DNA of 64,000 nt. Source: an uncultured Candidatus Saccharibacteria bacterium (GTDB taxonomy: Bacteria > Patescibacteriota > Minisyncoccia > Phycocordibacterales > CAIRYW01). The notes below the pieces were generated by a model. The model was not told where the DNA came from. It searched no databases and worked only from the letters and a program-made list of their open reading frames with translations. Shown piece by piece: positions 5,308 to 62,712 of the stretch. The stretch's first letter is position 1, and the number at the start of each line of letters is the position of its first letter. Position numbers and translations under genes: made by a program. The stretch spans positions 70,283 through 134,282 of the forward strand of contig CAYUPH010000001.1 of NCBI GenBank assembly GCA_964446625.1. The letters are read 5' to 3'.

Positions 5308-5336
5308 AAACGCCAAAACAAAGGCGTTTTTTTCTT
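5308..5336 (+). terminator. Rho-independent terminator after ppa
   Basis: Hairpin AACGCC-aaaacaa-AGGCGTT followed by a T7 run. Confidence 0.7.
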
Positions 5337-5453
5337 TTGCACCAAAATAGGTGAAAGATGTCTCGAAAAAAAGTATAATAGAGAGGTGTTTGAATACCTT
5401 TTCTACTATCAAACACTATTGTTCAAACACTATTGTTAGTTAACAAAAAAATA

Positions 5454-6197: not shown

Positions 6198-6222
6198 ATT
6201 ATAAAAACAACAAATAAAGCAC

Positions 6223-9684: not shown

Positions 9685-9686
9685 AA

Positions 9687-46211: not shown

Positions 46212-48950
46212 GTGTTAAGGAAAACCTTAAAAAAAAGTTTAGTTTTCTCTATTATTATCGCCTGCTTTTGTGGAGCTTTTCCAAATTTGACCCATGCAAC
46301 TATGCAGTCTTTTTTGGTGAAGAAGGCGAATATAACAGTCAACGGAGTTACATATGACATACCACAGGATCCTTCTTGGATAAACCAAGCCATATTAGGT
46401 TGGAAATCTATTTTTTCTGACGCAGCTCAAGGCGTCGGAAATGATGTTGCAATTGGAATAACAACTGCGCTCCCAAAAGCATTGAGTGGTTTTATAACCC
46501 ACTTCTTTATCGATGGATTCTTTATGATCGCAACAGGTATCCTCATAATTTCCACTTTTCTTTTTAATATAATTTTCGAGATAACATTGGTGGACATGGG
46601 AGGACTATTGGGTCGTTTTACAGCAATTGGCGCAGTATGGAAACTTATGCGCGACTTAGGGAATGTAGTAATGATTTTTACACTTCTGTACTATTCCTTT
46701 TCTCTTATGCTTAATCTAGATGAGGGGGGAGTAAAAAGAGGAATTAGTAAACTTATTATTGTTGCAATGCTTATTAACTTCAGTATGTTTTTTACTAAAA
46801 GCATTATTGATGTAGGAAACATACTTGCTTTAGGATTTTATAACAAAATATCTATTTCAAATGAGAGTCAGTTTGAAAAGGAAAATAAAGTTTTGATTGA
46901 AAAACTAAGAGCAAATAATTTATTAGGCTACTTTGTCCAAGGATATTCTGCTGCGAAAAGAAGCGTAGGTCTAGCAAGTGCATTTCTTTCTGGTTTTAAT
47001 TTCCAAAAAATAAAAGCTAACCCTGGGAGTTTTTTTCAAAATGCCACGTCAGTTAGCTCTATCGATGTCACTCTAAACAATGTTCTAACGATACATATTA
47101 TAGGAACCTTGATGATGCTTTTTTTATCAATTGTTTTTCTTGCTGCAACTATTATCTTTATAAAAAGGTTTATAGTACTACTAGTACTCATAATTATTTC
47201 CCCTTTAGCTTTTATTGCGATGGTTTTACCACGGGGTATGGGTGAAGAAATGGGGGGGACTTTTTGGAAAAAACTAATCTCGGAAGCACTTGCGGCCCCG
47301 GTCTTTATGTTCATGATCTGGCTTGGATTTAAGATAATAACTGATGAGCAGTTTAAACTAGCTATTAAGTCTGATAATTATCCATTTCTTTCTCTCCCTG
47401 TTATCTTTTCATATACCATAGCAAACTTCATACTCGTCGGATCTCTTATTGCAAGCCAAAAAGTAGGAGCTTCAGGTGCAGAACAGGCTATAAATGTTTA
47501 TAAAGGTGTTAAGGGGTGGGTAGGACAAAATACTGTAGGCCGTGCCGCCTACCAAGTTCTAGAAAAAGGTGGGACTGCACATTGGTTGTATCAAACAAGA
47601 GCTGATGGTATTGGACGAAACATACCTTTTGTTGGAAAAGGAGTGCAGGCAATGACAAAGTTTGGTGCATCAAAAATCTTTGACACACTTCACCACACCG
47701 CATCCTCAAAGTTTGATAGCATTCCCTCTTTTGGTGATCATGGACATGGTGATCATGGACACGGTGATCATGGACATGAACCGGGAGGATTTGCAAAAAA
47801 AATCAGCGATGATGCTAAGAAAAAAATGGACTGGATAAATGAAAACAAAAATAATCCTAAAGAGTGGATAGGAACTCTTATGTTGAAGCAATATAAAGAA
47901 GGTAATAATAGTGATTATGACACAAAAGTAGTCGAAAGAGTCATTGAAACTATGAAGATAGAAGACCTTGCAGAAATGACACGTACTGTTGATTTAGAAA
48001 AGAAGGAATTAGAGGAAAAGGACAAGGAAGGAAAACTAGGCGCTAAAGAAAAAGAACGTCTTGCAGTTCTTCAAGGTTTTAGAGAGCTTATTGATCACCG
48101 TCTACCTGCCAATACAGCAGAGCAACTTCGTAGAAAAGTAGAAGGTCCAACACGAGTAAACCAAATTGAATTTGACAGACTAGCAAAAAATATATTCCAG
48201 AGAGATGCTCAGGGTAATCTGAATAGTAGCGGAAGAACAATGGAAGAGATTGTATCACTCCAGGCAGCCCTCAGAGAATTAAGAAAGAATCCGAATGCCA
48301 CTCCTACAGTAAAAATGGCAGATGGAACGGTAAAGACTTTTATCGGAGAAGTTGGTATAAGAGAAGCACAAAAGAAGATTGGAATAAATTACAAAGAAAA
48401 AAACATCTCCGCACTTCGCCAGTACTATTCTTCATTAAACGGAAAACAGAAAACAGGACTTACAGGTGAGTCTCTGATTAATAAGGCAGTTCTTGACTTA
48501 AATAACGATACTGATGTCTTTGAACAAATGCAAAGGGAAGCAAAACAAACAGGAAAGGAAAAAGAATCTATGGGGAGCGTAGGATTGAGTCATAAGAGAA
48601 ACTTCGAACTTTATAGTAAAATTAAGGAAAAACACGCCCAAAATCAGGATTATTCTACAGAGGAAAGTGAGCTTATTGAAAATCTTCGAGACAGAGGACT
48701 GCACATAGAAGGAGAGGGTGATCAAATGAGAGAACTAACTCCTGAAGAACTTCTAAAAAAATATGTTGCAGAGGAATACAATGACGGCTCAAAACTTGAG
48801 AAGTATTTCAAAAACAATGGAGCAAGATTTTACGGTGAGGAAAGTCCAGAAAGAGAAGTTGAACGAGTTAAAGAAATGTTTGCGGCACGCAGACAACCAC
48901 CAGCGGGAGGCGCTACCCCTCCTCCTCTCCCTGGAGGGCCTCGACCATAA
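46212..48950 (+). CDS. VirB6/TrbL-like polytopic inner-membrane protein with long C-terminal soluble extension (HGD repeats, Pro-rich tail)
   Basis: Signal peptide, at least 6 predicted TM helices in the first 420 aa, then a 490-aa hydrophilic domain. Gene context includes VirB3-like and VirB4. Confidence 0.5.
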   Translation: MLRKTLKKSLVFSIIIACFCGAFPNLTHATMQSFLVKKANITVNGVTYDIPQDPSWINQAILGWKSIFSDAAQGVGNDVAIGITTALPKALSGFITHFFIDGFFMIATGILIISTFLFNIIFEITLVDMGGLLGRFTAIGAVWKLMRDLGNVVMIFTLLYYSFSLMLNLDEGGVKRGISKLIIVAMLINFSMFFTKSIIDVGNILALGFYNKISISNESQFEKENKVLIEKLRANNLLGYFVQGYSAAKRSVGLASAFLSGFNFQKIKANPGSFFQNATSVSSIDVTLNNVLTIHIIGTLMMLFLSIVFLAATIIFIKRFIVLLVLIIISPLAFIAMVLPRGMGEEMGGTFWKKLISEALAAPVFMFMIWLGFKIITDEQFKLAIKSDNYPFLSLPVIFSYTIANFILVGSLIASQKVGASGAEQAINVYKGVKGWVGQNTVGRAAYQVLEKGGTAHWLYQTRADGIGRNIPFVGKGVQAMTKFGASKIFDTLHHTASSKFDSIPSFGDHGHGDHGHGDHGHEPGGFAKKISDDAKKKMDWINENKNNPKEWIGTLMLKQYKEGNNSDYDTKVVERVIETMKIEDLAEMTRTVDLEKKELEEKDKEGKLGAKEKERLAVLQGFRELIDHRLPANTAEQLRRKVEGPTRVNQIEFDRLAKNIFQRDAQGNLNSSGRTMEEIVSLQAALRELRKNPNATPTVKMADGTVKTFIGEVGIREAQKKIGINYKEKNISALRQYYSSLNGKQKTGLTGESLINKAVLDLNNDTDVFEQMQREAKQTGKEKESMGSVGLSHKRNFELYSKIKEKHAQNQDYSTEESELIENLRDRGLHIEGEGDQMRELTPEELLKKYVAEEYNDGSKLEKYFKNNGARFYGEESPEREVERVKEMFAARRQPPAGGATPPPLPGGPRP
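47733..47777 (+). repeat. Perfect 15-nt tandem repeat x3 (GGTGATCATGGACAT) encoding (GDHGH)3
   Basis: Direct reading of the sequence; lies within the VirB6-like ORF. Confidence 0.9.
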
Positions 48951-48974
48951 AACAAGTTGTTAAGAAATTACTAA

Positions 48975-49874
48975 ATGCAAAAATACTCAACTGATCAATA
49001 TAATAAAATCTTCTACAGTCTCCCAAAAGAGATTCAAGATATTGTTGTTGCGTACAGTACAACCGAAAAGTTGTACGAAATTGGTCAAACTCACAAACTC
49101 CATATAGACCAAATTGGCGTTATGAATGATGTCGCTTTTGATGTCATGATGGGAATTACTTCTACAAAAAACATGGTTGCTGAGCTTGCAAAAGAACTCC
49201 AAATCCCTGAGCTTGAAGCAAGTAAAATAGCGTTTGATGTGGATGAACAAATCTTTAAGCCAATTAAGGAAATAATGAAAAAGGTATACGGTGACGGGAG
49301 TCCAATGCGACCAAAGCCGAGCTACCAGTATGTTCACGAGGAGGATGAAAAAGACATAGAAACACATACTTCAAGGGCCAACCTTTTAAAAGAGATTGAA
49401 GCCCCTGAAGAAGCTCAAGTGAAAAAGATAGTATTAAACCCAGCTCCAGAAAAACAATCTATATCTCCACCAGAAAAGCCGGTAGCAGAAGAGACAAAGA
49501 AAACAGAGGACGGCTTACGGATGGATGAAACATTAAAACAAAAGAGAGAGAAACTACTCCAGTCCATTGCAGACAAGAAACTGAGCTCTATGACAGTAAT
49601 GAAAGCTGAAGAAGAAACACTTTCCGTCGCACCTCCTAGATTCATTCCTGCCTCTCCGGTTGTAAGTAAAGAAATTCCATCTCTTAGTCCAAAAATCGAC
49701 GAGAAAAATGCAGAAAAGCCAAAAAGAAAGATAATTGATCCATTCCTCAATCAAATACAGCAAAATAAAGTTACAGAAGATGTGGTAGAAAAAGACAATA
49801 AGACTCCTACGATCGAAGAAACCGCACAAAAGCAAGAAAAGATTATAGACCCTTACAGGGAACCAATCGAATAA
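48975..49874 (+). CDS. Hypothetical E/K-rich protein
   Basis: 299-aa ORF in operon context; no domain recognised. Confidence 0.45.
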   Translation: MQKYSTDQYNKIFYSLPKEIQDIVVAYSTTEKLYEIGQTHKLHIDQIGVMNDVAFDVMMGITSTKNMVAELAKELQIPELEASKIAFDVDEQIFKPIKEIMKKVYGDGSPMRPKPSYQYVHEEDEKDIETHTSRANLLKEIEAPEEAQVKKIVLNPAPEKQSISPPEKPVAEETKKTEDGLRMDETLKQKREKLLQSIADKKLSSMTVMKAEEETLSVAPPRFIPASPVVSKEIPSLSPKIDEKNAEKPKRKIIDPFLNQIQQNKVTEDVVEKDNKTPTIEETAQKQEKIIDPYREPIE

Positions 49875-49944
49875 AACAGACCGATTCCGGTCTGTTTTAT
49901 TTTTCTGTTTTCTTTTTTAGGATTATAATTAGTCTATATATTTT

Positions 49945-50445
49945 ATGCAGTACCAAGTTCCACAATTTATTGAAGTCGAGGATAAAATCTTTGGACCCCT
50001 TACCTTTAAACAATTTGCATATCTTGTAGGGGGCGGGGGGATTTCTTTTCTTGTTCACAGATTCATTGGTTTCCCTTTTTCAATACTTATTGCTCTCCCA
50101 ACTCTTGCTTTTGCACTCGCTATGGCATTTTACAGAGTGAACAATAAGCCTTTTATTGAAATTTTTGAAGCAGCAGTCAAATATACCCTTGGGAGCAAGC
50201 TCTATGTTTGGAAAAAACAAGAAAAAAGGGTAGCCCCCGAGGCAGCTGTTCAAATGCCTGGATCTAGTGTGTATGTTCCAAAACTCTCTGAGTCGAAACT
50301 TCGGGAACTTACATGGAACCTCGACATTAATGAGACGATTTATTCAAATGAAGAAAGACGAGAAAGGGATGAAAAGACTGGAAGGGAAGGACCTCTGAAT
50401 GCATTTAAAGGTCTTTCCTACGATTTAAATGAAAATATGAGATAA
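49945..50445 (+). CDS. PrgI/VirB3-like small membrane protein
   Basis: MQYQVPQFIEVEDKIFGPLTFKQFAYL followed by two TM helices then YRVNNKPFIEIFEAAVKY. Compare the PrgI pattern VP...K...LT.RQ...TM...Y.RDGLPFE. Lies immediately upstream of VirB4, as in Gram-positive T4SS. Confidence 0.55.
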   Translation: MQYQVPQFIEVEDKIFGPLTFKQFAYLVGGGGISFLVHRFIGFPFSILIALPTLAFALAMAFYRVNNKPFIEIFEAAVKYTLGSKLYVWKKQEKRVAPEAAVQMPGSSVYVPKLSESKLRELTWNLDINETIYSNEERRERDEKTGREGPLNAFKGLSYDLNENMR

Positions 50446-50452
50446 TAACTTT

Positions 50453-51091
50453 ATGAGTGATTCAAGAAGTTCTCAAGACTTTGTTCCAATAAAAGAAATT
50501 CGTGACGGAATAGTTGTCCTTAAAACAGGAGGGCTTCGTGGTGTTGTTATGACCTCTTCAATAAACTTTGCCCTCAAAAGTGCAGACGAACAAAACGCAA
50601 TTATCTACCAATTTCAAAACTTTCTAAACTCCCTTAACTTTTCAATTCAGATTCAAACACAATCCAGGCGACTTGATATCCGTCCATATATTGCGCTCCT
50701 CGAAAATGTTGAAAGGGAACAGAAAAATGATCTGCTCCGAATCCAAACAAGGGAGTATATCCAATTTATCAAGACATTCACCGACACAGTAAACATTATG
50801 ACGAAAACTTTCTTTGTTGTGGTGGAGTACACCCCAGCTATCCTTCAGACAAAAAAAGGGATTTCAGGTATGTTCTCAAAGAGTAATGACAAAACAAAAA
50901 AGGAGAGCTTTGAAGAAAACAGAACACAGCTTCTCCAGAGAATGGAAGTAGTTATCCAAGGACTTACACGAATGGGACTACGCAGTGTTCCACTTGGCAC
51001 CGAAGAACTTGTAGAGCTATATTACAAAATTATGAATCCAGGGGAAACAGAAAAACCAATTAATGTTGAAGCCGCAATGGCACTTAACTAA
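50453..51091 (+). CDS. VirB4-family N-terminal domain protein (separate ORF)
   Basis: DFVPIKEIRDGIVVLKTGGLRGVVMTSSINFALKSADEQNAIIYQFQNFLNSL resembles the N-terminus of Gram-positive VirB4 homologs. Ends 1 nt before the ATPase ORF. Confidence 0.55.
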   Translation: MSDSRSSQDFVPIKEIRDGIVVLKTGGLRGVVMTSSINFALKSADEQNAIIYQFQNFLNSLNFSIQIQTQSRRLDIRPYIALLENVEREQKNDLLRIQTREYIQFIKTFTDTVNIMTKTFFVVVEYTPAILQTKKGISGMFSKSNDKTKKESFEENRTQLLQRMEVVIQGLTRMGLRSVPLGTEELVELYYKIMNPGETEKPINVEAAMALN

Positions 51092-51092
51092 C

Positions 51093-52904
51093 ATGTCATT
51101 ACTTGATAAACTTTTAGGAAAAAAACAAGAAGAAGCCCAGCCTGTAACAGCTATCTTGCCTGAGGAAATTTACCAGGCAGGAGTCCTTGAGCTCAAAGAT
51201 GTCATTGCACCATCAGCCCTGAAGATTACACCTCGTGAAATTAACCTTGGTGACAAGATCGCTCGAACATTTTTTGTGATCTCGTACCCTCGCTTTCTTA
51301 CAGAAAGTTGGTTTGCTCCGATTGTAAACCTCGACAAAATTTTTGATGTTTCAGTATTCATTCACCCAATTGATACAGCACAAATCCTAAGACAATTTCA
51401 AAAAAAGGTTGCCGAAGTGCAAAGCCAGATTTCGGAAAGGGAATCCAAGGGACTTGTAAGGGACCCGATGCTCGACACCGCGTACCAAGACCTCGAAACA
51501 CTGCGAGACCAACTCCAGCAGGCACAAGAGAGACTTTTTGAAGTAGGGCTCTATATTACAATCTACTCAAACACAACAGAGGAGCTTGATAAAATCGAAT
51601 CTGAACTAAAATCAATCCTTGAATCAAAACTTGTTTACTTAAAACCAGCGCTCTTCCAACAAGAACAAGGTTTTAGAAGTGTCATGCCAATCGCAACAGA
51701 TGAGCTCGAAGTACACTCAAAATTAAACTCTTCTCCTCTTTCAAGCATCTTTCCTTTTATTTCATTTGACCTTACGAGTGATAAGGGAATACTTTTTGGT
51801 ATTAACAGACACAACTCCTCTCTAATTCTCTTTGACAGATTCTCACTAGAAAACTATAACTCAGTTACATTTGCGAAAGCCGGAGCAGGAAAAAGTTATT
51901 GTACAAAACTTGAAATACTCCGTTCACTTATGTTTGATACTGATGTGATTGTTATTGACCCAGAGAGGGAATACGAATATATGGCAGAATCAACGGGAGG
52001 TCGCTACTTTAATATCTCGCTTACTTCAGAGCACCATATCAACCCATTTGATCTTCCTACCCCTCGAGAAGACGAATCTCCAGCGGATGTTCTTCGATCG
52101 CACATTATTAACCTAGTAGGACTCTTCCGAATTATGCTTGGCGGACTCACACCTGAGGAAGATGCAATCATCGACCGCGCGATTACTGAAACCTATGCCC
52201 TCAAAGATATTTCTCCATCAAGTAAGTTTGACACTATCGAACCACCTCTTATGTCTGACTTTGAGCTCGTTCTTGCAGGTATGGAAGGAGGAGGATCGCT
52301 CGTTCAGAGACTTGAGAAATATACAAAGGGAACGTGGGCAGGATTCATTAACAGACCAACAAACGTTGATATCAATAAAAAGTTCGTAGTTTTCTCTCTT
52401 CGAGACATGGAAGATGAACTAAAGCCTGTTGCGATGTACATTGTGACTCATTACATCTGGAATGCTATTAGACAAAAACTAAAGAAGCGTCTTCTCGTGA
52501 TCGATGAGGCCTGGTGGATGATGAAAAGTGAGGATACTGCTTCCTTCCTTCTTGGACTTGCAAAACGAGGACGAAAATATTATCTTGCTCTTTCAACAAT
52601 TACACAAGACGTCGAAGACTTTCTTAAATCCCCTTATGGGCTTCCTATTATTACAAACTCATCTATCCAAATACTCCTTAAACAGTCGCCTTCTTCAATC
52701 GACATAATTCAACGTACTTTTAATCTCACTGATGAAGAAAAGTTTCTGCTTCTTGAGTCAGATGTAGGAGAGGGAATCTTTTTTGCAGGACTAAAACACG
52801 TTGCGATTAAAATTATTGCTTCCTATACCGAGGATCAAATCATTACATCAAATCCTGAGCAAGTTCTCGCAATCAGAGAGGCAAAAAGAAATAGCGAAAT
52901 ATAA
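51093..52904 (+). CDS. VirB4/TrbE/CagE-family type IV secretion ATPase (ATPase portion)
   Basis: Walker A FAKAGAGKSYCT, Walker B and DEAW motif LLVIDEAWWMM, family-typical length and context. Confidence 0.85.
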   Translation: MSLLDKLLGKKQEEAQPVTAILPEEIYQAGVLELKDVIAPSALKITPREINLGDKIARTFFVISYPRFLTESWFAPIVNLDKIFDVSVFIHPIDTAQILRQFQKKVAEVQSQISERESKGLVRDPMLDTAYQDLETLRDQLQQAQERLFEVGLYITIYSNTTEELDKIESELKSILESKLVYLKPALFQQEQGFRSVMPIATDELEVHSKLNSSPLSSIFPFISFDLTSDKGILFGINRHNSSLILFDRFSLENYNSVTFAKAGAGKSYCTKLEILRSLMFDTDVIVIDPEREYEYMAESTGGRYFNISLTSEHHINPFDLPTPREDESPADVLRSHIINLVGLFRIMLGGLTPEEDAIIDRAITETYALKDISPSSKFDTIEPPLMSDFELVLAGMEGGGSLVQRLEKYTKGTWAGFINRPTNVDINKKFVVFSLRDMEDELKPVAMYIVTHYIWNAIRQKLKKRLLVIDEAWWMMKSEDTASFLLGLAKRGRKYYLALSTITQDVEDFLKSPYGLPIITNSSIQILLKQSPSSIDIIQRTFNLTDEEKFLLLESDVGEGIFFAGLKHVAIKIIASYTEDQIITSNPEQVLAIREAKRNSEI

Positions 52905-52906
52905 AT

Positions 52907-53881
52907 ATGATTGCGTTTCTATGGAACTGGGTGGTGTGTCTTTTTGTTCCTTTTGCAGGAACAATAACTATTTTTGCTGAAGGAATTGTGGGAAAAGATA
53001 TAAATGGCAGAAAGATAAAAAGTCATTTGTTCCATATTCTTCTAGCATTTGTCTCTCTAGGGATTGATCTGCTCCTTCTTGGATACGGAGGAAATATCGT
53101 CCGGGCAATAGTTAAGATTTTAGGTCGTCCGTTTGCAAAAATAGGAGAAAAAACTGTTACTACAGCAGTTCAAACTTCTGTTAAAAGCACTTCACGTGTG
53201 GGAAGTCGTGCAACTGGGCGAATAACGGAAAGAAAACTTGCTCAAGAAAGCGAAAAAGTTGCTCAGGAAGCTATCGAATCTACAACTAGGCAAATCCAAA
53301 ATGAAAGTGAACATGGTTTTAAAGAGTTTAAAAAAAATGAACAAGCCCGAATTTCAGAAAAAGAGAAAATAGATCTCTCTAGTATGAAAGAAAACATTGA
53401 GAAAGCTCGACAAGACAATCTCGATGACTCGAATTCGCAATCAGAATTTGGTACCATATCAGAAGATCTGTTTAGTAGCGCAAAGGAAGAATCTAAATTT
53501 GCATCCAAACTCGAAAAAGCAATAGAAAGAGATCCTTCGCTAAAGAATGTAGCTGCAAAAAAGGTTACGCAAAATATTCCTGAGATGTCGAAAGTATTTG
53601 ATCAAAAAAAGGACCCGAGTAAGAGAGAAAAAATGAAAGAAAAGATCTTGTCACAAGTGCTACAAGAACAAGATGTAAATGTTGCTTTTGAAAAACTTGC
53701 CCAAAAAATTCGACATAACCCGCGCTCTCTAAAAAAACTAGAAATGATGATTTTAAAATTACCCCCTTCAGACCTAGTAAAGAAAGATGACCTAAAAAAA
53801 ATTGTCACATCCTTAATAGAAGGTTCAACTCCGGAGGTTAACACTTCTACAAAAAACACCGAAAACAATGCACGAAAGTGA
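52907..53881 (+). CDS. Membrane protein with coiled-coil cytoplasmic/periplasmic domain (hypothetical T4SS-like component)
   Basis: Two N-terminal TM helices then a charged coiled-coil region; in the operon. Confidence 0.45.
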   Translation: MIAFLWNWVVCLFVPFAGTITIFAEGIVGKDINGRKIKSHLFHILLAFVSLGIDLLLLGYGGNIVRAIVKILGRPFAKIGEKTVTTAVQTSVKSTSRVGSRATGRITERKLAQESEKVAQEAIESTTRQIQNESEHGFKEFKKNEQARISEKEKIDLSSMKENIEKARQDNLDDSNSQSEFGTISEDLFSSAKEESKFASKLEKAIERDPSLKNVAAKKVTQNIPEMSKVFDQKKDPSKREKMKEKILSQVLQEQDVNVAFEKLAQKIRHNPRSLKKLEMMILKLPPSDLVKKDDLKKIVTSLIEGSTPEVNTSTKNTENNARK

Positions 53882-53919
53882 GAGGAAAGTACTTGTACAC
53901 CATGCTATAATATATACCA

Positions 53920-54954
53920 ATGAAAAAGTTTTATTTTTCACTAATTATTATAATATGTTTTATTGCAGCTTTTTTCTCCTTTAAAGCTTTGGGTCAGGGT
54001 ACACTTTCTATACCCGCACAAATTAATGGACTAGAAGAACAAATCTCACTAAAAGTAAGTCCTCAAGTACCTGAACCTGGAAAGCCTGTAGTTCTTACAG
54101 TAAATGCTTATGGAACAGATATATCGAAAGCAAAAATTACATGGAAAACTGATGGAAAGGTAGTATTAGGGCCAGGAGTAGCAACCTCCTTAACCTTAAC
54201 TATGGGCACAATTGGTGAGGCTGTTACTGTAGAAGTGATCGTTGAACCTTTTAATGGACCAGCTGTAAACAAAAAAGTCACCCTCATACCTGGCGAGGTT
54301 GATTTAATCTGGGAGGCAGAGGGATACAATCCACCATTTTATAAGGGGAAGATCTTTTATGGTCCTGAGAAAAATGTAAAAGTGGTTGCAATTCCAAATA
54401 TATATGATACTTCTGGCAAAAAAGTGAACCCTCTAAATCTGGACTTTAAATGGAGTAAAAATAATGAGATAGAAGGCAGCGTCTCTGGTGCTGGAAAAAA
54501 CTACTGGCCTTTTAAAGGGTGGATATTACTCAAGAGTATCGAAGTTGGAGTTACTGTAGGAAGTGAAGGAAAAGTAAGAGGGCAAAGTAGCTTTAACCTA
54601 CCATCTTTCTTTCCAGAGGTAAGAATGTATGAAAATAGTGGAATTTATGGAATTCTTTTTAATAGATCGCTTTTAGGTACATCAGAACTTAAGGATACTG
54701 AACAAACAGTTGAAGTGTACCCATTTAGTTTTGGAATCCAAAACCGCACTGACCCCGCTTTTCGTGTAACTTGGCAGATGAATAGAAAAAATATTTTTTC
54801 AACAGAAGGTAAATCAAAAATTACAGTAAGAAATACTGAGAATGAAAGTGGGGAAGCAGAACTAGGTGTGAAAGCGCAGAATATAAATTACACATTTGAT
54901 GAAAGTGCAGGAAGATTCACACTAAAGTTTAGCAAAAAGGATTTTGAATTTTAA
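53920..54954 (+). CDS. Secreted beta-rich protein (hypothetical)
   Basis: Signal peptide; no domain recognised. Confidence 0.5.
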   Translation: MKKFYFSLIIIICFIAAFFSFKALGQGTLSIPAQINGLEEQISLKVSPQVPEPGKPVVLTVNAYGTDISKAKITWKTDGKVVLGPGVATSLTLTMGTIGEAVTVEVIVEPFNGPAVNKKVTLIPGEVDLIWEAEGYNPPFYKGKIFYGPEKNVKVVAIPNIYDTSGKKVNPLNLDFKWSKNNEIEGSVSGAGKNYWPFKGWILLKSIEVGVTVGSEGKVRGQSSFNLPSFFPEVRMYENSGIYGILFNRSLLGTSELKDTEQTVEVYPFSFGIQNRTDPAFRVTWQMNRKNIFSTEGKSKITVRNTENESGEAELGVKAQNINYTFDESAGRFTLKFSKKDFEF

Positions 54955-55892
54955 TGGATAATATAATTAAAAAGTCCGTAATCATTATTACATTTTTATT
55001 GGTTTTAGTGATTCCTTTTTTTTCACACGCCTATGTCCCCCTTGTCCAAGTAGACGGCCTAACAACGAACCTTGACTCCAATAACCCAAACCTCATCAGT
55101 GAATACTTGCTTGGGCTTTATAAGTTTGGGGTAGGGCTCGCAGCAGCTATTGCTATAGTCCTCATTATTATTGGAGGATTTCAGTATGCCACAACAGACG
55201 CTATCGGAGGGAAGGAGGATGGAAAGGAGAGAATAAGAAATGCTATTGGAGGACTCCTTCTTGCTTTGTTTTCTTTTTTAATTCTTAACACAATTGATCC
55301 AAGACTGACGAGTGTGGATTTTAATGTCGGAGAAGTGGAGGTGGAAACATCCTCGGTTCTTTCTATTGCTATTGGGTTGCGCAGTGATGCAGATATGCAG
55401 TATGCAGGAGACGGGGGAGAGCTTCCTTCTCCAAATATGGACTTTGATGTTGTTAATCATTTAGATTTAAGTTCAAGTGGTACCGCAGGAAACTATCGTA
55501 GCACTTGGTATAATAAAAATGAAAAAGGAGCGGATAAATGGACAATAAAGGGGCAAACCTCTACTGGAATCCCACTAAGATTTGCAGACGCAAACACAGT
55601 TGGTGTTGCTGCAGTTGACCCAAATATTATTCCATACGGAAGCGTTATTTTGGTAGGATCGGGTGCAAATAGAAGAGTGTATGTTGCTGGAGATACAGGG
55701 TCTGCCGTAGTTAATAGAACCGCATCTGGACGAACTGTACCTGTCATAGATTTTTATAGTCAAGGACAGGTAGGTAGAGAATACGATAATTTCAGTGTCA
55801 TTCCTTATACTGGAGGAAACTTCCAGTCTCTATCGGGAGAAAACAAAGCAGCTGTTATAGAGAATATTCGTTCAACATATTTAAGTCACTAA
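54954..55892 (+). CDS. VirB2/TrbC-like pilin-type N-terminal membrane module fused to a 3D-domain (MltA-like) cell-wall hydrolase domain
   Basis: Signal peptide plus two hydrophobic helices separated by the short loop DAIGGKEDGKERIRN. The C-terminus has AVDPNIIPYGSV...VAGDTGSAV...VIDFY, the three-Asp pattern of 3D domains. Confidence 0.5.
   Translation: MDNIIKKSVIIITFLLVLVIPFFSHAYVPLVQVDGLTTNLDSNNPNLISEYLLGLYKFGVGLAAAIAIVLIIIGGFQYATTDAIGGKEDGKERIRNAIGGLLLALFSFLILNTIDPRLTSVDFNVGEVEVETSSVLSIAIGLRSDADMQYAGDGGELPSPNMDFDVVNHLDLSSSGTAGNYRSTWYNKNEKGADKWTIKGQTSTGIPLRFADANTVGVAAVDPNIIPYGSVILVGSGANRRVYVAGDTGSAVVNRTASGRTVPVIDFYSQGQVGREYDNFSVIPYTGGNFQSLSGENKAAVIENIRSTYLSH
55037..55324 (+). repeat. 288-nt direct repeat, copy 1 (1 mismatch to copy 2 at 55961-56248), encoding the shared pilin-like module
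   Basis: Direct sequence comparison of the two segments. Confidence 0.9.
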
Positions 55893-56770
55893 TGAAAAAG
55901 CAAATATTTAAATTTTTATTTTTTGTCACTTTTTTTCCACTTATTTGCTTCGGCTACACCCCCCTTGTCCAAGTAGACGGCCTAACAACGAACCTTGATT
56001 CCAATAACCCAAACCTCATCAGTGAATACTTGCTTGGGCTTTATAAGTTTGGGGTAGGGCTCGCAGCAGCTATTGCTATAGTCCTCATTATTATTGGAGG
56101 ATTTCAGTATGCCACAACAGACGCTATCGGAGGGAAGGAGGATGGAAAGGAGAGAATAAGAAATGCTATTGGAGGACTCCTTCTTGCTTTGTTTTCTTTT
56201 TTAATTCTTAACACAATTGATCCAAGACTGACGAGTGTGGATTTTAATTTAGGAAACGCTGTTAAGGTTGATACAGATAGTGTGCTCGATATATTGCAAG
56301 ACCCAAACTTTATAGAGGAAGATAATTACTCAATTCCAGGAGTCACACCCGTAGAACCCGCTGGTGCGATTGGAGAAAAAACTAATATACCTGCGGGTAT
56401 TCGAGTTGATAGTCAAGGAAAACAAGTTGATATCACTATGAAATCCAGCTTAGAGCGCCTAAACCAGGAATTAGGAAAAAACAACATCGGATGGGCTGTC
56501 ACAGAGGCTTACCCACCAAGTAGGCAACACAAGGCGCCATGTCACCAAACTGGAACTTGCATTGATGCGAACTTCCGAAGTACTGATGCAAGTCCTGAGA
56601 ACGTAAAGAAATTTCTTCAGAGCGCGAGCACAGCAGGACTTCGAGCGGTCTATGAAGTTCAGTCTGAAAGTGAAAGAACCAGATTTGTAAACGCGGGTGT
56701 TCCAGCGGAAAGCATAGTGAACCTTGGAAGTTGGATCACTGCTCCACACTTTTCTGTTTATAGTAATTAA
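55892..56770 (+). CDS. Paralog of the previous gene: same pilin-like N-terminal module fused to an M15 (VanY/LAS)-like peptidase domain
   Basis: N-terminal about 96 aa identical to the upstream paralog. The C-terminus has CHQTGTCIDANF (H..G..D) and a terminal APHF, resembling LAS metallopeptidase motifs. Confidence 0.45.
   Translation: MKKQIFKFLFFVTFFPLICFGYTPLVQVDGLTTNLDSNNPNLISEYLLGLYKFGVGLAAAIAIVLIIIGGFQYATTDAIGGKEDGKERIRNAIGGLLLALFSFLILNTIDPRLTSVDFNLGNAVKVDTDSVLDILQDPNFIEEDNYSIPGVTPVEPAGAIGEKTNIPAGIRVDSQGKQVDITMKSSLERLNQELGKNNIGWAVTEAYPPSRQHKAPCHQTGTCIDANFRSTDASPENVKKFLQSASTAGLRAVYEVQSESERTRFVNAGVPAESIVNLGSWITAPHFSVYSN
55961..56248 (+). repeat. 288-nt direct repeat, copy 2
   Basis: Direct sequence comparison with 55037-55324. 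Confidence 0.9.
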
Positions 56771-56794
56771 TTATTTTTGAGGTAAAATATAGCT

Positions 56795-58186
56795 ATGCTT
56801 AAGAAAGTAGTTATCGCGCTCGAAATTCTTTTGGTAATTATTCTTCTTTGGGTTGGGTACGCTTTCTTCAAATTTAAAACAAACCCAAAAAATGAAACTT
56901 TTGTTGAAACAGCCAGCAACATTTTTCCTTTTGGTGATTTTGGATCGTCTCCAGATTTAAAACTTGGAAGTGGGGGTGGCGCAGTAGGCGACACGACACC
57001 TTCTCCAGATTCTACATTAGACGGAAACACTACAGATGATCCAAGCCTTAATACCCCTAGCGTAATTCCTAGACTGCGCCAAATTACCACTGTCCCTACA
57101 GCTGGTTCAATCATTGTTCCAAGAGAGAAAGAAATCATTAAAGACGGTAAAAAGACAAAAATTACAGAGTATTTTATTCGTTATACAGACCGTGCCACAG
57201 GACATGTGAGTGAAACTAAAACAGATTCCTTGTCAGTAGAAAAAATTTCTAATACAACTATTCCAAAAGTATATGAGGCTTACTATACATTCGGAGGTGA
57301 CGGATTTCTAGCAAGACTCCTTGATGACGATGGAGAAACTATAAAAACTTACTTTGTTTCTCTCGTAAAAAACACAGGCACTTCAACAGACCCAGCAAAT
57401 ATTCTTTCCCCTAAAGAATCGAGCATCTCATTTCTACCGAACAACCTCAGAGAAGTGTCACTTTCTCCTGACAGACTTTCACTTCTATCCCTTTCATATG
57501 GAGGAAGTGGGGGAGTAATTGAAGCAGGAAGTGTCACAGGAAAAAATAAAAAAACAGTTTATAATGGCGAACTTAGAGAATGGCTCATTGAATGGGTTGA
57601 CGCGGGACGCGCAATTCTTACAACAAAACCTTCTGGATACGTTGTAGGGTATTCTTACTTCCTTAATATGGTAAGTGGAGGATTTGATAAGATTACTGGG
57701 GGAATTTTAGGCCTTACAATACACGCTGCACCAAACACACAATTTATACTCGTTGGAGAAGGTGGAAACACACAAAACCTGTCAGTTTATTCCACGAAGG
57801 ATAGATCGCTGCGAGTAACTGGACTTAAAACACTCCCTGAAAAATGTACTTTTGCAAAAAAAGAAAAAAATACAGCGTATTGTCTTGTTCCTTTCATTCT
57901 TCCAGAAGGTGTATACCCTGACAGTTGGTATAAAGGGGACATCACGTTTTCTGATACCCTTTGGAAAATTAATCTCGAAAACGGTGAAACAAAACTAGTA
58001 GCAAACTTTAGATACCCATACAACCAAGAAATAGATGGAGTAAACCCAGAAGTTGCCTCTAATGATGCGTATATAACGTTTATAAACAAAAAAGATCTTA
58101 CTCTCTGGGGTTACACCATAGAAGAGCAAGTTGCTGCAACTACAACAAAAAGCACCGCTTCTTCTACAGCGGTGCTTCCTCGATAA
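56795..58186 (+). CDS. Membrane-anchored periplasmic/extracellular protein (hypothetical); last gene of the operon
   Basis: N-terminal TM and a 440-aa hydrophilic domain; no motif. Its 3' end overlaps jag convergently by 23 nt. Confidence 0.5.
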   Translation: MLKKVVIALEILLVIILLWVGYAFFKFKTNPKNETFVETASNIFPFGDFGSSPDLKLGSGGGAVGDTTPSPDSTLDGNTTDDPSLNTPSVIPRLRQITTVPTAGSIIVPREKEIIKDGKKTKITEYFIRYTDRATGHVSETKTDSLSVEKISNTTIPKVYEAYYTFGGDGFLARLLDDDGETIKTYFVSLVKNTGTSTDPANILSPKESSISFLPNNLREVSLSPDRLSLLSLSYGGSGGVIEAGSVTGKNKKTVYNGELREWLIEWVDAGRAILTTKPSGYVVGYSYFLNMVSGGFDKITGGILGLTIHAAPNTQFILVGEGGNTQNLSVYSTKDRSLRVTGLKTLPEKCTFAKKEKNTAYCLVPFILPEGVYPDSWYKGDITFSDTLWKINLENGETKLVANFRYPYNQEIDGVNPEVASNDAYITFINKKDLTLWGYTIEEQVAATTTKSTASSTAVLPR

Positions 58187-58631
58187 CTTTTTTGTATTTC
58201 ACTACAACCCTCCTGTCTTTTCCCTCTCCAATAGAGTCGGTTTCTATATCACTTAGACCTTCAAGGGCAGTATGAATTACCATTCGCTCATACGAGCTCA
58301 TCGGCTCCATTTCAACATCCATCTTAAAGCTCCTTGCTCTCTCTGCAAGAATGCGCGCTTTAGAAATAATAACTGCATCTCTCTTAGCCTTTTGTCCATT
58401 TACATCAAAACTAATCCTTTGCTCCTCACCAATCTCTTTCCCAAGAATCTTTTTTAAAAGGGTAGAAAGTGCATCAAACCTTTCGCCGTCTCGGCCCAAA
58501 AATCCTCTTTCATCGAGAGTTTGTATCGATATTAGAACTCCGTGGTCTGTGGCCTCTACTTCAACACTCTCAGGTTGTAGTAGAACCTTTGCAAAAAATT
58601 CATTAACAATAGATTTAACTTTCTCTTCCAT
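58164..58631 (-). CDS. jag: Jag/KhpB-type R3H RNA-binding protein
   Basis: KH-like and R3H motifs (ERMVIHTAL), canonical position downstream of yidC. Confidence 0.8.
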   Translation of the reverse strand: MEEKVKSIVNEFFAKVLLQPESVEVEATDHGVLISIQTLDERGFLGRDGERFDALSTLLKKILGKEIGEEQRISFDVNGQKAKRDAVIISKARILAERARSFKMDVEMEPMSSYERMVIHTALEGLSDIETDSIGEGKDRRVVVKYKKVIEEAPL

Positions 58632-58671
58632 ACCTTTACATCTTATCGATGAAAAAGGTTATGTCAACTTT

Positions 58672-59379
58672 CTATTCCTTTCGGATGTTTCTTTTAACGT
58701 ATATTTCTTGGAAAGTCATGAAAACGTTACGGACAGACCAATAAAGGGGGAGAGCACTAGGAAGAGTCACACCAATAAACCCAATAAGAATAGGGAAAAC
58801 ATACTTCATCTGGATTCCCATAGAATGCGAAAAGTTTTCACTAAATGAGCTTTCTGCTGTAGGTTTTTTTGTTTTAGGTGCTGCAATCTGAGCCTGCACA
58901 AACTGGGTAACTCCTGCAATAACAGCCATTACAAGGCTTTTCTCGCTTATATCAAGTAAACCAAGGAAATGCATCGAGACGGTTTCTGGCACCTTTACAA
59001 AAGAGTAGAGAAGTTCGGTATGAATTGTAGGTAGCCCTCCTCGAAGGAAAACGAAGTAGAGGGCAAAAATGATTGGAAACTGGATAAGCATAAGGAAAAT
59101 CATCGAAATAGGGTTAATCTTATGCCTTTTATAAAGCTCCATCATATGAAGTGCCTGCTCCTGTCTATCTGGATACTTTTCTTTTAGTGCCTTTAGTTCT
59201 GGATCAATCTGTTTTAGTTTGATTTGGCTTCGAATTGCATTCTTTGAGATACCAAAGAGGATAAAACTAACTATTATGGTTAATGTAACAACGGCAATAC
59301 CCGCGTCTCCACCTGGAATAACTCCAATTAGATACACTAGCGCATTGTAAAGGGGATCATAAAATAATGTGTGAAACAT
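58672..59379 (-). CDS. yidC: Membrane protein insertase YidC (short form)
   Basis: Conserved YidC core TM helices with the PLYW..V motif region; position after rnpA. Confidence 0.88.
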   Translation of the reverse strand: MFHTLFYDPLYNALVYLIGVIPGGDAGIAVVTLTIIVSFILFGISKNAIRSQIKLKQIDPELKALKEKYPDRQEQALHMMELYKRHKINPISMIFLMLIQFPIIFALYFVFLRGGLPTIHTELLYSFVKVPETVSMHFLGLLDISEKSLVMAVIAGVTQFVQAQIAAPKTKKPTAESSFSENFSHSMGIQMKYVFPILIGFIGVTLPSALPLYWSVRNVFMTFQEIYVKRNIRKE

Positions 59380-59751: not shown

Positions 59752-59889
59752 TTAAACAGTAGAAAGTCGTTTTCGACCCTTTCGAAGTCGGTTCTGAAGT
59801 GTTCTTGCACCATTTCGCATCTTCTTTCGTGCAAGAAAACCATGAGTTTTCGCTCGTTTTTTCTTTTTTGGGTTATATGTCTGTGACAT
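59752..59889 (-). CDS. rpmH: 50S ribosomal protein L34
   Basis: MSQTYNPKKKKRAKTHGFLARKKMRNGARTLQNRLRKGRKRLSTV is canonical L34. Start at Met 59889; the longer track ORF is spurious. Confidence 0.9.
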   Translation of the reverse strand: MSQTYNPKKKKRAKTHGFLARKKMRNGARTLQNRLRKGRKRLSTV

Positions 59890-59959
59890 GAAGAAAATAT
59901 AGCATATTTTTTCCATTTGACAAATAAGGAGGAAAATAGGGGTGAAATCAGGACTAATC

Positions 59960-59985
59960 CACTTTTCCACAACTTATCAACATAC
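59960..59985. promoter_or_regulatory. Two near-consensus DnaA boxes (TTTTCCACA, TTATCAACA) in the rpmH/dnaA divergent intergenic region
   Basis: Each differs by 1 nt from TTATCCACA; positions 59963-59971 and 59974-59982. Confidence 0.5.
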
Positions 59986-61614: not shown

Positions 61615-62712
61615 ATGACAACTGAAATATCGAGAGAGAAGTTCATAGAAGGTATTGGGAAAGCAGAGAAGATTTCTGGGAAGCATGTTTCACTCCCTAT
61701 TCTCTCTAGTGTGCTTATGCAGGTAAAAAAGAATGAGGTTGTTTTTGTCTCTACAAACCTTGATGTTGGTATTGAAGTACAAATCCCAGCAAAAGGAGAA
61801 GATGAGTATTCTTTTGTAATTAAGCCTGAACCCGTGAAGTCTTTCCTACTTGGAGCAAAGGGTCAAAATGTGTCTTTAGAAAAACGAGAAAATGTTCTTG
61901 AGATGAGAGTGGGAGACAATGTTGCTACGGTTAAAATTGAGTCTCCTGAAGAGTTTCCAACAATCCCAAGGGTATCAGAAGGGAAAGAGTGGTTTATTGC
62001 GTCTAAAGACCTTACAAAAGGAATTAAAGCGGTACTCTGGAGTGCTTCAACTTCAACAATAAAGCCTGAGATTGGAAGTGTGTATATTTATCAAAATGAA
62101 GAGGATGTTGTGTTTGTTGCAACAGACTCTTTTCGTCTTGCAGAGAAGAAGATAAAAGCAAAAAAAGCAAAGGATTTTGAACCACTTCTTATTCCGACAA
62201 AAAATGCATCTGAAATAATAAAAATTCTTGATGGGGTGAGCTCGGAAGTGAAAGTTATTTCAAGTAAGAATCAGATCTCATTTGAAGCAGAAGGAACCTA
62301 CCTTACTTCGCGTCTTGTTGATGGAAACTTTCCTGACTACAAGCAAATTATTCCTAAAGAATTTAATACGGAAGCAAGGATCTTAAAGGAAGACTTGTCT
62401 TCTGTTCTCCGAACAGCAGCGGTTTTTTCGGATTCATTTCATCAGGCGACACTTACGTTTATCCCAAAGGATAAGAGTTTGGAGGTGAAAACACGAAGTA
62501 ATGAGGTCGGGGAAAGTGTATGTAAAATAAAAGGTTCACTTGAAGGAAACGTGCTTTCGATGAATTTTAATCACAGGTATTTGGCGGATCCGCTTCAGTC
62601 TATTGAAGGAGAAGGGGTGCTTATAAGTGCTGTTTCAGAAAGTAAACCACTTATTATAAAAAATAGTGGCGGGAGTGATTTTCTTTACTTAGTGATGCCT
62701 ATGAATCGCTAA
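61615..62712 (+). CDS. dnaN: DNA polymerase III beta sliding clamp
   Basis: 365 aa with three-domain clamp architecture and conserved C-terminal LVMPMN. Confidence 0.92.
   Translation: MTTEISREKFIEGIGKAEKISGKHVSLPILSSVLMQVKKNEVVFVSTNLDVGIEVQIPAKGEDEYSFVIKPEPVKSFLLGAKGQNVSLEKRENVLEMRVGDNVATVKIESPEEFPTIPRVSEGKEWFIASKDLTKGIKAVLWSASTSTIKPEIGSVYIYQNEEDVVFVATDSFRLAEKKIKAKKAKDFEPLLIPTKNASEIIKILDGVSSEVKVISSKNQISFEAEGTYLTSRLVDGNFPDYKQIIPKEFNTEARILKEDLSSVLRTAAVFSDSFHQATLTFIPKDKSLEVKTRSNEVGESVCKIKGSLEGNVLSMNFNHRYLADPLQSIEGEGVLISAVSESKPLIIKNSGGSDFLYLVMPMNR

Follow-up and report, generated by a model that had tools for sequence, protein, structure and literature searches.

Among Gram-positive T4SSs, PrgK of pCF10, TraG of pIP501, CwlT of ICEBs1 and Orf14 of Tn916 have been described as membrane-anchored VirB1-like hydrolases (PMC12857230; PMC12102498). 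In the Patescibacteria, the published VirB2-like pilin arrays are diversified, with a mean amino acid identity of 25% and a maximum of 54% (Quinonero-Coronel et al. 2025, PMC12102498), and that 2025 survey concluded that a VirB1 hydrolase is missing from most genomes that have VirB2-like pilins (PMC12102498). A cultured Saccharibacterium cannot grow as an epibiont without its T4SS and pilin genes (Wang et al. 2023, PMC10633639), and neither a relaxase nor a coupling protein was recognised in that organism (PMC10633639).

The window, by which we mean the whole 64-kb stretch of DNA that was analysed, comes from an uncultured, ultra-small Patescibacteria bacterium with a Paceibacteria/Parcubacteria-like genome and contains a co-directional T4SS cluster (Table 1) with the gene order PrgI, split VirB4, two ORFs, gene A and gene B. 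Genes A and B each join a VirB2-like pilin module to a different putative wall-cutting domain, and we think that they are probably VirB1-equivalent peptidoglycan hydrolases of a chromosomal monoderm-type T4SS, with docking modules homogenised by gene conversion. The stop and start codons of the upstream ORF and gene A, and of gene A and gene B, overlap as TAATG at 54952-54956 and 55890-55894, respectively. Residues 3-167 of the product of the ORF preceding the VirB4-like ATPase gene match N-terminal positions of the NCBIfam VirB4 models. The position one or two ORFs downstream of VirB4 is conserved in all related loci that reach VirB4 (L004, L005, L007, L008 and L011). Several of the unassigned genes also have positional counterparts: a 962-aa ORF upstream of PrgI in L004 stands where the window has its 912-aa ORF, ORFs of 335-339 aa are found at the position of the 344-aa secreted protein in the five loci just named, and ORFs of 396-452 aa at that of the 463-aa ORF in L008, L010 and L011. 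The position of the 324-aa ORF is taken by an ORF of 115-199 aa in four of six relatives, and in L007 the ORF there is on the opposite strand. Scanning of the neighbouring genes revealed neither a relaxase nor a T4CP.

Table 1. Features of the T4SS cluster and of the two pilin-hydrolase genes, in window coordinates.
Feature	Position	Strand	Evidence or remark
912-aa ORF, first of the co-directional cluster	46212..48950	+	No Pfam or NCBIfam match
299-aa ORF	48975..49874	+	Identical gene in L001-L003; L004 has a 353-aa ORF here
PrgI-family (VirB3-like) T4SS component	49945..50445	+	PF12666, 38.4 bits (cut-off 27)
Separate ORF, VirB4 N-terminal (TraC-like) domain	50453..51091	+	NCBIfam VirB4 models; PF26593 in relatives
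VirB4-like T4SS ATPase	51063..52904	+	NF045971 conju_CD1110, 366.7 bits (cut-off 325); PF19044, 90 bits
324-aa ORF	52907..53881	+	No Pfam or NCBIfam match
344-aa secreted protein	53920..54954	+	Weak Ig-like match; stop overlaps gene A start (TAATG)
Gene A (312 aa): signal peptide, VirB2-like pilin module, ~55-aa linker, 3D (YuiC/MltA-type) domain	54954..55892	+	
Gene A signal peptide, aa 1-26	54954..55031	+	Predicted cleavage after SHA; not in gene B
Repeat copy 1, mature pilin module (N-terminal segment, TM1, K/R-rich loop, TM2)	55037..55325	+	PF18895, aa 52-113
Gene A 3D domain, ~aa 179-290	55488..55823	+	PF06725; invariant D222, D247, D266
Gene B (292 aa): signal peptide, same pilin module, ~45-aa linker, LAS-fold zinc peptidase domain	55892..56770	+	
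Gene B signal peptide, aa 1-21	55892..55954	+	Not in gene A
Repeat copy 2, mature pilin module	55960..56248	+	AF2 helices 42-75, 79-109, pLDDT 90-96
Gene B LAS (Hedgehog/DD-peptidase fold) domain, aa 160-292	56369..56767	+	E205, H213, H218, D225, E255, H286
463-aa ORF, last of the cluster	56795..58186	+	No Pfam or NCBIfam match

The N-terminal parts of both proteins have the VirB2/TrbC pilin topology that a sequence-only reading of this DNA had proposed, namely a signal peptide and, after it, two hydrophobic helices with a short, positively charged loop between them. The signal peptides are not shared (MDNIIKKSVIIITFLLVLVIPFFSHA and MKKQIFKFLFFVTFFPLICFG), the loop is TDAIGGKEDGKERIRN, and besides the two confidently modelled helices of the module the AF2 model of gene B has a helix at residues 2-19. 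Matches to PF18895 cover model positions 9-70 of 71 in both proteins and, at 22.5 bits for gene A (E 1.2e-4) and 23.7 bits for gene B (E 5.1e-5), do not reach the gathering threshold of 26.6 bits. The expected TrbC/VirB2 family assignment thus fell short for the two proteins themselves and stood at the level of the family, through transitive homology to PF18895 and PF04956: at E<=1, PF18895 is matched by all 48 full-length gene B homologues (best E 3.4e-12) and TrbC/VirB2 PF04956 by 12 of the 48. An HMM of the module found 13,759 representatives, and 131 of the best 150 match PF18895 at E<=0.001 (best E 1.8e-25). The closest members of this family mostly carry long C-terminal extensions, including SLT, 3D, YkuD, Amidase_2, NlpC/P60 and M15_3 domains, so that the module is indeed joined to other domains in relatives, as the sequence-only reading had suggested looking for. 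The N-terminus of the mature module, Y-x-P-L, is strictly conserved, and dN/dS in the module is low. The signal peptide and two-helix hairpin are features held in common with VirB2/TrbC pilins, PF18895 and the VirB2-like arrays of Patescibacteria, which are, like genes A and B, tandem paralogues near virB4 and dnaA in the same phylum. Classical pilins are ~70-130 aa long, whereas the gene A and B proteins additionally carry enzymes of 180-200 aa. An ORF at 6205-6489 of the window (HMM E 0.0085) was considered as a stand-alone pilin and dropped, having no PF18895 match.

The tail of gene A is a 3D domain of the MltA/YuiC-like type, as had been proposed. It exceeds the PF06725 gathering threshold of 23.8 bits both within the whole protein (27.8 bits) and on its own (29.4 bits), four homologues score 26.8-30.1 bits, and all five members of the gene A family have D222 (AVDP), D247 (GDTG) and D266 (IDFY). 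These three aspartates, with the motifs G-V-A-A-V-D-P...A-G-D-T-G...I-D-F-Y, are shared with the YuiC/MltA 3D lytic transglycosylases (PF06725; PDB 4wlk, 4wjt), from which gene A differs in its fusion to a pilin module and in an insertion between the second and third Asp, because of which Pfam aligns only positions 3-42 of 72 in PF06725. The gene A family profile aligns with residues 247-314 of a Monoglobus 3D protein (hhalign 97%, E 1e-10), and the same region of that protein matches YuiC 4wlk/4wjt at E 1.5e-9; for PDB sequences, direct phmmer and the family profile gave only noise over the catalytic tail. The AF2 model of gene A, built from a five-sequence alignment, is poor (mean pLDDT 49), and the assignment of the 3D fold, for which a double-psi beta-barrel would be expected, is therefore one made from sequence.

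The gene B tail has the Hedgehog/DD-peptidase fold. The sequence-only reading was right about an LAS-type metallopeptidase domain, although the motif that it gave, H-x3-G-x2-D, is in fact H-x2-G-x3-D (H218-x6-D225). With H286 this makes up the predicted zinc triad, and E255 and H213 are the predicted catalytic residues. In all 48 gene B homologues H213, D225, E255 and H286 are invariant; H218 is kept throughout the 10 closest sequences and is Q in a few of the 48. A profile alignment places H213, H218 and D225 on H135, H141 and D148 of ShhN, and E255/H286 are paired with ShhN E177/H183 by motif comparison only. The suggested Peptidase_M15 match did not materialise: Pfam lists no Peptidase_M15, VanY or HH_signal match for gene B itself, and none is in the top 25, by number of matches, of the 54 families that the 48 homologues hit (E<=1). 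A direct search of PDB sequences with gene B gave only noise for the catalytic tail, and the family profile gave a borderline match to ShhN (E 0.03). We therefore regard gene B as a divergent family of the LAS clan for which there is no existing model. This clan (MEROPS clan MD) includes the zinc peptidases VanX, VanY, LdcB, MepA and the phage L-Ala-D-Glu peptidases as well as the Hedgehog N-domain; the gene B family differs from known LAS peptidases in having ~30 residues from the catalytic Glu to the last His, and in a conserved C-H-x2-G-T-C motif.

The likely role of the two proteins can be described as follows. Each would be exported by its own signal peptide, and the VirB2-like hairpin would then insert into the membrane with its K/R-rich loop in the cytoplasm, as the positive-inside rule predicts, an orientation that would leave the C-terminus outside the membrane on a flexible linker of ~45-55 aa. 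There, the YuiC/MltA-type 3D domain of gene A should cut glycan strands and the LAS zinc peptidase of gene B peptide stems or cross-links, in a wall that may be the cell's own or that of a host, and it is presumably through the VirB2-like module that both enzymes are docked at the T4SS. Genes A and B resemble those for PrgK, TraG, CwlT and Orf14 in being encoded in a T4SS operon near virB4 and in having an N-terminal membrane anchor and, on the predicted topology, an extracytoplasmic catalytic domain. The glycan-cleaving and peptide-cleaving activities combined in those hydrolases would here be divided between separate polypeptides, a pair that mirrors the glycosidase-plus-peptidase combination of PrgK, TraG and CwlT. 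Unlike the anchors of the Gram-positive proteins, that of genes A and B is a VirB2-like pilin hairpin behind a cleavable signal peptide, and the catalytic domains are 3D and divergent LAS rather than SLT, muramidase, CHAP, NlpC/P60 or LytM, to none of which the tails show homology. Because the tails are 3D and LAS, the relation to VirB1-like hydrolases is one of functional analogy and not of family membership. On the evidence of the domains and the operon context, the earlier idea of a matched pair of wall-cutting enzymes tethered at the secretion site in the manner of VirB1 appears sound overall.

Such a matched pair of hydrolases is not obligatory, since a second pilin-hydrolase is missing within 4 kb in about 22 of 32 species-representative pilin-LAS loci. 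Predicted glycosidases and peptidases are often paired among these fusions. At the position orthologous to gene A, L010 and L031 encode an SLT domain (40.7 and 51.8 bits). The tail of the partner gene in L005 has no recognisable domain in Pfam or the PDB; a resemblance to CHAP, seen by eye, was set aside for want of support from either database.

The two modules are encoded by a direct repeat of 289 nt with an offset of 923 nt, and the copies differ only by C/T at 55076/55999. A chance origin is excluded, because all other direct repeats within 53000-59000 are of <=28 nt, with 76-85% identity. The repeat and its single mismatch are as the sequence-only reading had described them, although its limits of 55037-55324 and 55961-56248 each deviate by one base at one end; its statement that the shared segment encodes the signal peptide proved wrong, as identity begins two codons past the predicted cleavage site. 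The segment ends ~10 aa beyond the second hydrophobic helix. Near-identity of the modules is the result of repeated gene conversion between abutting paralogues under strong purifying selection, in agreement with the gene conversion suspected earlier, and the modules of L004 and L008 are closer within each genome than between orthologues. The signal peptides and tails of these two loci are orthologous (dS 0.47-0.96), so both gene types predate the L004/L008 split, and the module dS between orthologues is 0.66, compared with 0.27 between the paralogues of L008 and 0.07 between those of L004 (a 19-codon fragment). Module identity in five genomes is 94-98.6% within a genome versus 45-57% between distant genomes, and the same tandem architecture with a homogenised module (90-100% nucleotide identity) is present in at least six other genomes. 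The bacterial genes tufA and tufB are duplicates kept alike by gene conversion. As in that type of concerted evolution, the paralogues A and B of one genome are kept alike and orthologues drift apart, but here only one module of each gene is affected and the tails are non-homologous. With modules 96-98% identical in protein in the window, L008 and L005, this module-restricted concerted evolution in a pilin array is the reverse of what has been reported for other Patescibacterial arrays, namely diversification. For GC-biased conversion there is no more than a hint (GC3 37-38% in the module, 26-33% in the tails). Exchange of signal peptides and tails between lineages was also considered and not retained, the signal being weak (z 2.7-4.4 on low-complexity peptides).

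It is formally conceivable, but highly improbable, that the modules are nearly identical because a duplication or domain shuffle took place very recently, and in this genome alone, with no ongoing conversion. Such an event would also leave a single mismatch in 289 nt, and the unrelated tails mean that domain shuffling happened at some point; we rejected a one-off event on account of the homogenised pairs in other genomes and of the L004 and L008 gene types, which are older than their split and yet have lower module dS between paralogues than between orthologues. We give almost no credence to the duplication being an assembly artefact, or to the module being a generic signal-anchor on housekeeping wall enzymes unrelated to the T4SS. 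Every available assembly is short-read, with breaks inside the repeat in several relatives, but three contigs from different ENA assemblies of different samples (L001-L003) have the locus in 100% identical form, and two of these contigs span both copies. A single base distinguishes the copies, four different unique sequences flank them, and because a unique segment, 'tail A + signal peptide B', separates them, the tandem path is the only one that uses all segments. Pairs in relatives have diverged to an intermediate 90-96% identity, beyond what any assembler would create, and an artefact was rejected on the identical assemblies, the one-base difference and this divergence. A generic anchor would accord with PF18895 scores below threshold in both window proteins, but not with the strong family-level matches to PF18895 and TrbC, nor with a site just downstream of VirB4 that is kept in all loci reaching VirB4.

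There is a modest chance that the fusions are genuine pilus or conduit subunits, whose identical modules co-polymerise into an epibiont filament that bores through the wall of the host and not through its own. Genes A and B would then be 'evolved pilins', bringing complementary wall-cutting enzymes to a filament or conduit, and the family of 13,759 representatives would be a delivery scaffold for wall-active domains, a proposal that we find rather unlikely. Within 4 kb, both in the window and in nearly all related loci, every VirB2-like module is one fused to a hydrolase, and because no short stand-alone pilin was seen within 4 kb of the related loci except in L034, the fusions may themselves be pilins and not mere anchors; stand-alone pilins could, however, be encoded outside the 64-kb window. 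Favourable to pilus subunits are the very large module family with its mostly extended closest members, and the essential T4SS and pilin genes of a cultured Saccharibacterium in which no relaxase or coupling protein was recognised (PMC10633639), together with the lack of a relaxase or T4CP among the neighbours scanned here. The conserved Y-x-P-L N-terminus and low dN/dS suggest a role for the module beyond spanning the membrane. Judging from the structures of F- and T-pili, we would expect a globular domain of 180-200 aa on every subunit to hinder VirB2-type helical packing. The modules of L037, L041 and L043 are only ~70% identical, so the modules need not be identical and, by extension, need not strictly co-polymerise. 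Evolved VgrG3 of Vibrio cholerae is a precedent for a specialised effector fused to a structural secretion component; like genes A and B it carries a wall-degrading domain, there on a structural subunit, and the module of genes A and B is a candidate for a filament subunit.

As probable hydrolases of the VirB1-equivalent kind, genes A and B offer a concrete candidate for what has been missing as VirB1 in Patescibacteria, with wall-cutting domains fused to a VirB2-like module in a set of Paceibacteria-type genomes, and such fusion could explain the apparent lack of the usual wall-opening enzyme in these T4SSs. They also provide a testable idea of how a relaxase-less Patescibacteria T4SS crosses a wall, whether its own or the host's, and gene B brings to light a divergent, Hedgehog-like family of LAS peptidases that is captured by no Pfam model. 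The contigs of several relatives end inside the repeat. Because the 289-nt repeat breaks short-read contigs at this locus, such pairs are probably under-counted in MAG surveys.

The two adjacent genes, gene A and gene B, encode a common pilin-like module followed by different tails, and compared base by base at an offset of 923 nt they agree at all but one of 289 consecutive nucleotides (C/T at 55076/55999). The remaining direct repeats in 53000-59000 are all imperfect and at most 28 nt long, and the 289-nt repeat is therefore far beyond chance. Outside it the genes align poorly or not at all on either side, with two different signal peptides 5' and two unrelated tails 3' of the copies. Identity begins two codons past the predicted signal-peptidase site (SHA/YV in gene A, CFG/YT in gene B) and ends about 10 residues past the second hydrophobic helix. 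A sequence-only reading had recognized the near-identical repeat and its one mismatch, with each copy one base off at one end; its inclusion of the signal peptide in the shared segment has to be corrected, as the repeat covers the mature module only. Stop/start overlaps (TAATG) at the junctions of a 344-aa gene with gene A and of gene A with gene B indicate that translation of the pair is probably coupled to that of the 344-aa gene, which lies upstream.

The module aligns with the T4SS_pilin family PF18895 over positions 9-70 of the 71-position model (E values of 1e-4 and 5e-5), the scores of the two window proteins, 22.5 and 23.7 bits, just missing the gathering score of 26.6 bits; a second, weak match is to NF045849, a pilin-like conjugal transfer family of NCBIfam. 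Of the 48 full-length gene B homologues, every one matches PF18895 and 12 match TrbC/VirB2 (both at E<=1), in line with the VirB2/TrbC-like pilin module originally proposed. A 98-aa module query against 1.84 billion cluster representatives retrieved 13,759 proteins at E<=1e-3, and PF18895 was found at E<=0.001 in 131 of the best 150. The predicted T4SS_pilin assignment is secure at the family level. AlphaFold2, with a 48-sequence alignment, predicted a hairpin of helices 42-75 and 79-109 (pLDDT 90-96) after a signal helix. The inter-helix loop (GGKEDGKERIRN) is K/R-rich, so that by the positive-inside rule it would be cytoplasmic and the C-terminus outside. Some module-bearing representatives, P0092 (618 aa), P0094 (612 aa), P0106 (891 aa), P0096, P0140 and P0149, have three to four pilin modules per polypeptide, which reflects either concatenation of pilins or the fusion of gene calls.

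The tail of gene A is a predicted 3D domain, as previously called. The PF06725 score is 27.8 bits with the entire protein and 29.4 bits with only the tail (cut-off 23.8), each of its four homologues exceeds the cut-off singly, and the three aspartates after which the domain is named (D222, D247 and D266) do not vary. The annotated 3D-domain protein of Monoglobus, a tblastn match, matches Bacillus subtilis YuiC structures (E 1.5e-9), and the gene A family profile aligns with the same region of it (hhalign probability 97%, E 1e-10). AlphaFold2 gave no usable model of gene A (pLDDT 49). The tail of gene B has no match in Pfam or NCBIfam and is modelled at pLDDT 93-98, with ShhN and LdcB as top Foldseek matches. 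Its family profile matches ShhN sequences at E 0.03, H213, H218 and D225 aligning with Shh H135, H141 and D148, and motif comparison (YE..HFSV/YES..HCSV) equates E255 and H286 with Shh E177 and H183; E205, H213, D225, E255 and H286 are invariant across all 48 sequences. The fold ranking, profile alignment and invariant residues thus agree with the earlier LAS-type call and identify a probable LAS zinc peptidase, divergent and with its predicted active site intact, in a family without a curated model. A conserved cysteine pair, C217 and C223, flanks the zinc-binding histidine (consensus C-H-x2-G-T-C), and many homologues have an additional Cys-rich linker motif (upstream G-C-x2-C) that is absent from the window protein; this suggests possible disulfides or a second metal site.

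Both genes lie in a co-directional type IV secretion system (T4SS) cluster, beyond which are jag-yidC-rnpA on the opposite strand and then dnaA. Neither a relaxase nor a coupling protein appeared among the neighbours that were scanned. A chromosomal monoderm-type T4SS beside dnaA has been published for Patescibacteria (PMC12102498), and the window cluster matches it; related loci are labelled Patescibacteria, Paceibacterota, Zambryskibacteria, Wolfebacteria and Moraniibacteria. VirB4 is split into two ORFs with a 29-nt overlap, and the identical split in loci L004, L005, L007 and L011 of relatives indicates a conserved feature and not a frameshift error. Just upstream of the cluster are three further proteins: one contains TIG and PG_binding_1 domains, one matches the bacterial TSP3 repeat weakly, and one, a 444-aa ORF, has no match; all three could be part of the same envelope or host-interaction region.

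Coordinates of features in the window and, where a locus is named, in related loci
Feature	Position	Strand	Length	Remarks
Upstream proteins	42837-43874 (-), 43854-46165			three proteins
T4SS cluster	46212-58186			co-directional
Cluster gene 1			912 aa
Cluster gene 2			299 aa
Cluster gene 3				PrgI/VirB3-like; PF12666, 38.4 bits
Cluster gene 4	50453-51091		212 aa	VirB4 N-domain (TraC-like), separate ORF
Cluster gene 5	51063-52904		613 aa	VirB4 ATPase; NF045971, 366.7 bits (cut-off 325)
Cluster genes 6 and 7				two ORFs without assigned function
Cluster gene 8 (gene A)	54954-55892		312 aa	co-directional with gene B
Signal peptide A	54954-55031
Module A	55035-55325			repeat copy 55037-55325
Cluster gene 9 (gene B)	55892-56770		292 aa	co-directional with gene A
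Signal peptide B	55892-55954
Module B	55958-56248			repeat copy 55960-56248
Cluster gene 10			463 aa
ORF	59752-59970	-		at relatives' rpmH position
ORF	61615-62712	+		at relatives' dnaN position
L034 stand-alone pilins	4733-5095, 5135-5476		121, 114 aa	PF18895, ~38 bits
L005 partner of pilin-3D	8980-9966			200-aa tail

The pilin-LAS architecture of gene B is common (82 matches in a 90%-clustered collection, about 50 of them full-length; 32 loci among GTDB species representatives) and the pilin-3D architecture of gene A is rare (four homologues). The site just downstream of VirB4, with one or two ORFs between, is conserved where contigs permit. Pilin-LAS stands alone at about 22 of those 32 loci; a subset of genomes has a second pilin-fusion gene 5' of it. 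This is pilin-3D in L008/L012 and in the genome of L004 and L013, pilin-SLT in L010 and L031 (PF01464, 40.7 and 51.8 bits), a lysozyme-like fusion in L037 and L043 (weak SLT_3, 19-20 bits, under the 27-bit cut-off) and a fusion whose tail has no assigned domain in L041 and L039; a gene of ~180 aa intervenes in L037, L041 and L043. Judged by these domains, the recurring pair is a predicted glycan-cleaving member and a predicted LAS peptidase. The 150 closest representatives bearing the module include 116 of more than 220 aa, with recognized tails of the SLT (8), gene B LAS (10), 3D (2), YkuD-type (2), Amidase_2, NlpC/P60, Peptidase_M15_3 and Amidase_5 kinds. The module is thus fused to other domains in relatives, which the sequence-only reading had proposed to check, and the variety of wall-active tails makes such fusion a general theme. 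In L005 the gene after pilin-3D encodes a pilin whose tail lacks an assigned domain; this tail contains conserved Cys and His residues, has no match in Pfam or PDB, and may be another, unrecognized wall-active domain. Two short stand-alone T4SS pilins lie directly 3' of pilin-LAS in L034 (Wolfebacteria), the only one of the 43 loci with adjacent plain pilins.

That the duplication is an assembly artefact is poorly supported. The exact gene A protein occurs on three contigs from different ENA assemblies, each matching the window at 100% identity throughout the part compared; two contigs traverse both copies and the third (a k141 assembly) ends 237 nt into gene B, within the repeat. The copies differ at one base and are separated by a unique segment, tail A plus signal peptide B. 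More decisively, this tandem pair recurs in other species with intermediate degrees of divergence, which no assembler would make. The observation of the repeat is thereby confirmed. A recent one-off duplication is also poorly supported: in the sister genomes L004 and L008, signal peptides and tails of the A type and of the B type are orthologues (dS 0.47-0.96), and the duplication is therefore older than their split. Orthologous modules of these genomes nevertheless differ by dS 0.66, versus 0.27 for the two modules within L008 and 0.07 for the L004 fragment (19 codons) and its own paralogue. Paralogous modules closer than orthologous ones are the signature of post-speciation gene conversion. 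Within-genome module nucleotide identity is 98.6% in the window (about 290 nt; 99.7% inside the 289-nt repeat), 98.6% in L031 (281 nt), 96.6% in L010 (177 nt, then contig start), 95.2% in L005 (293 nt), 90.1% in L008 (345 nt; 94% in the module proper), and, up to contig ends, 98% in L004 (58 nt) and 100% in L007 (88 nt), versus 45-57% between distant genomes (dS >1.4). Module dN/dS of 0.03-0.11 in older pairs denotes strong purifying selection. Where a gene separates the pair (L037, L041, L043) the modules are only ~70% identical, so identity follows adjacency and conversion and not strict functional need; of the explanations offered earlier, gene conversion stands and selection for identical anchors is tempered.

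Overall, with the corrections noted, the original interpretation is supported. Each protein would be exported, cleaved and then held in the membrane by its VirB2-like hairpin, a generic anchor being a poorly supported reading of the module. A linker of ~45-55 aa, disordered in the gene B model (pLDDT below 50), would give the catalytic domain access to the wall, where a lytic transglycosylase of the YuiC/MltA type, together with a LAS peptidase, would open the glycan and peptide dimensions of peptidoglycan, as PrgK, TraG and CwlT do for Gram-positive conjugation systems (PMC12857230). The VirB2-like module would plausibly direct both enzymes to the T4SS channel. The pair is a variant of both monoderm T4SS wall hydrolases and VirB2-like pilins. 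The main alternative, that the proteins are themselves pilus subunits displaying enzymes towards a host cell, is in our judgment unlikely. It would fit the lack of any stand-alone pilin within 4 kb at almost every locus, L034 excepted, and the essential, relaxase-less T4SS of cultured Saccharibacteria (PMC10633639); however, steric considerations disfavor it and short pilins are possibly encoded elsewhere in the genome. Most Patescibacteria with VirB2 have no recognizable VirB1, the usual T4SS wall hydrolase, a published puzzle (PMC12102498) for which wall hydrolases tethered by pilin modules would account. None of the papers that our literature search retrieved mentions pilin-hydrolase fusions or homogenized pilin modules; pilin arrays in a 2025 survey have at most 54% amino acid identity (PMC12102498).

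Short-read contigs from the window genome and relatives end within, or start just past, the module repeat of the second gene (L003 at 7177, L004 at 9079, L007 at 9089, and the start of L013), L004 and L013 being two contigs of one assembly broken exactly there; tandem pilin-fusion pairs are therefore probably under-detected in metagenome-assembled genomes. Window gene A has a signal peptide resembling those of the L004/L008 B genes (z about 2.7), and that of gene B resembles those of their A genes (z 3.0-4.4), which, in a comparison of low-complexity peptides, weakly hints that flanks may have been swapped by recombination inside the shared module. Third-position GC is 37-38% in the window modules, 26-33% in the tails and 30-32% in the signal peptides, and the module is the GC-richest gene part also in L008 and L031 but not in L005; GC-biased gene conversion could explain this, as could codon-usage or amino-acid effects.
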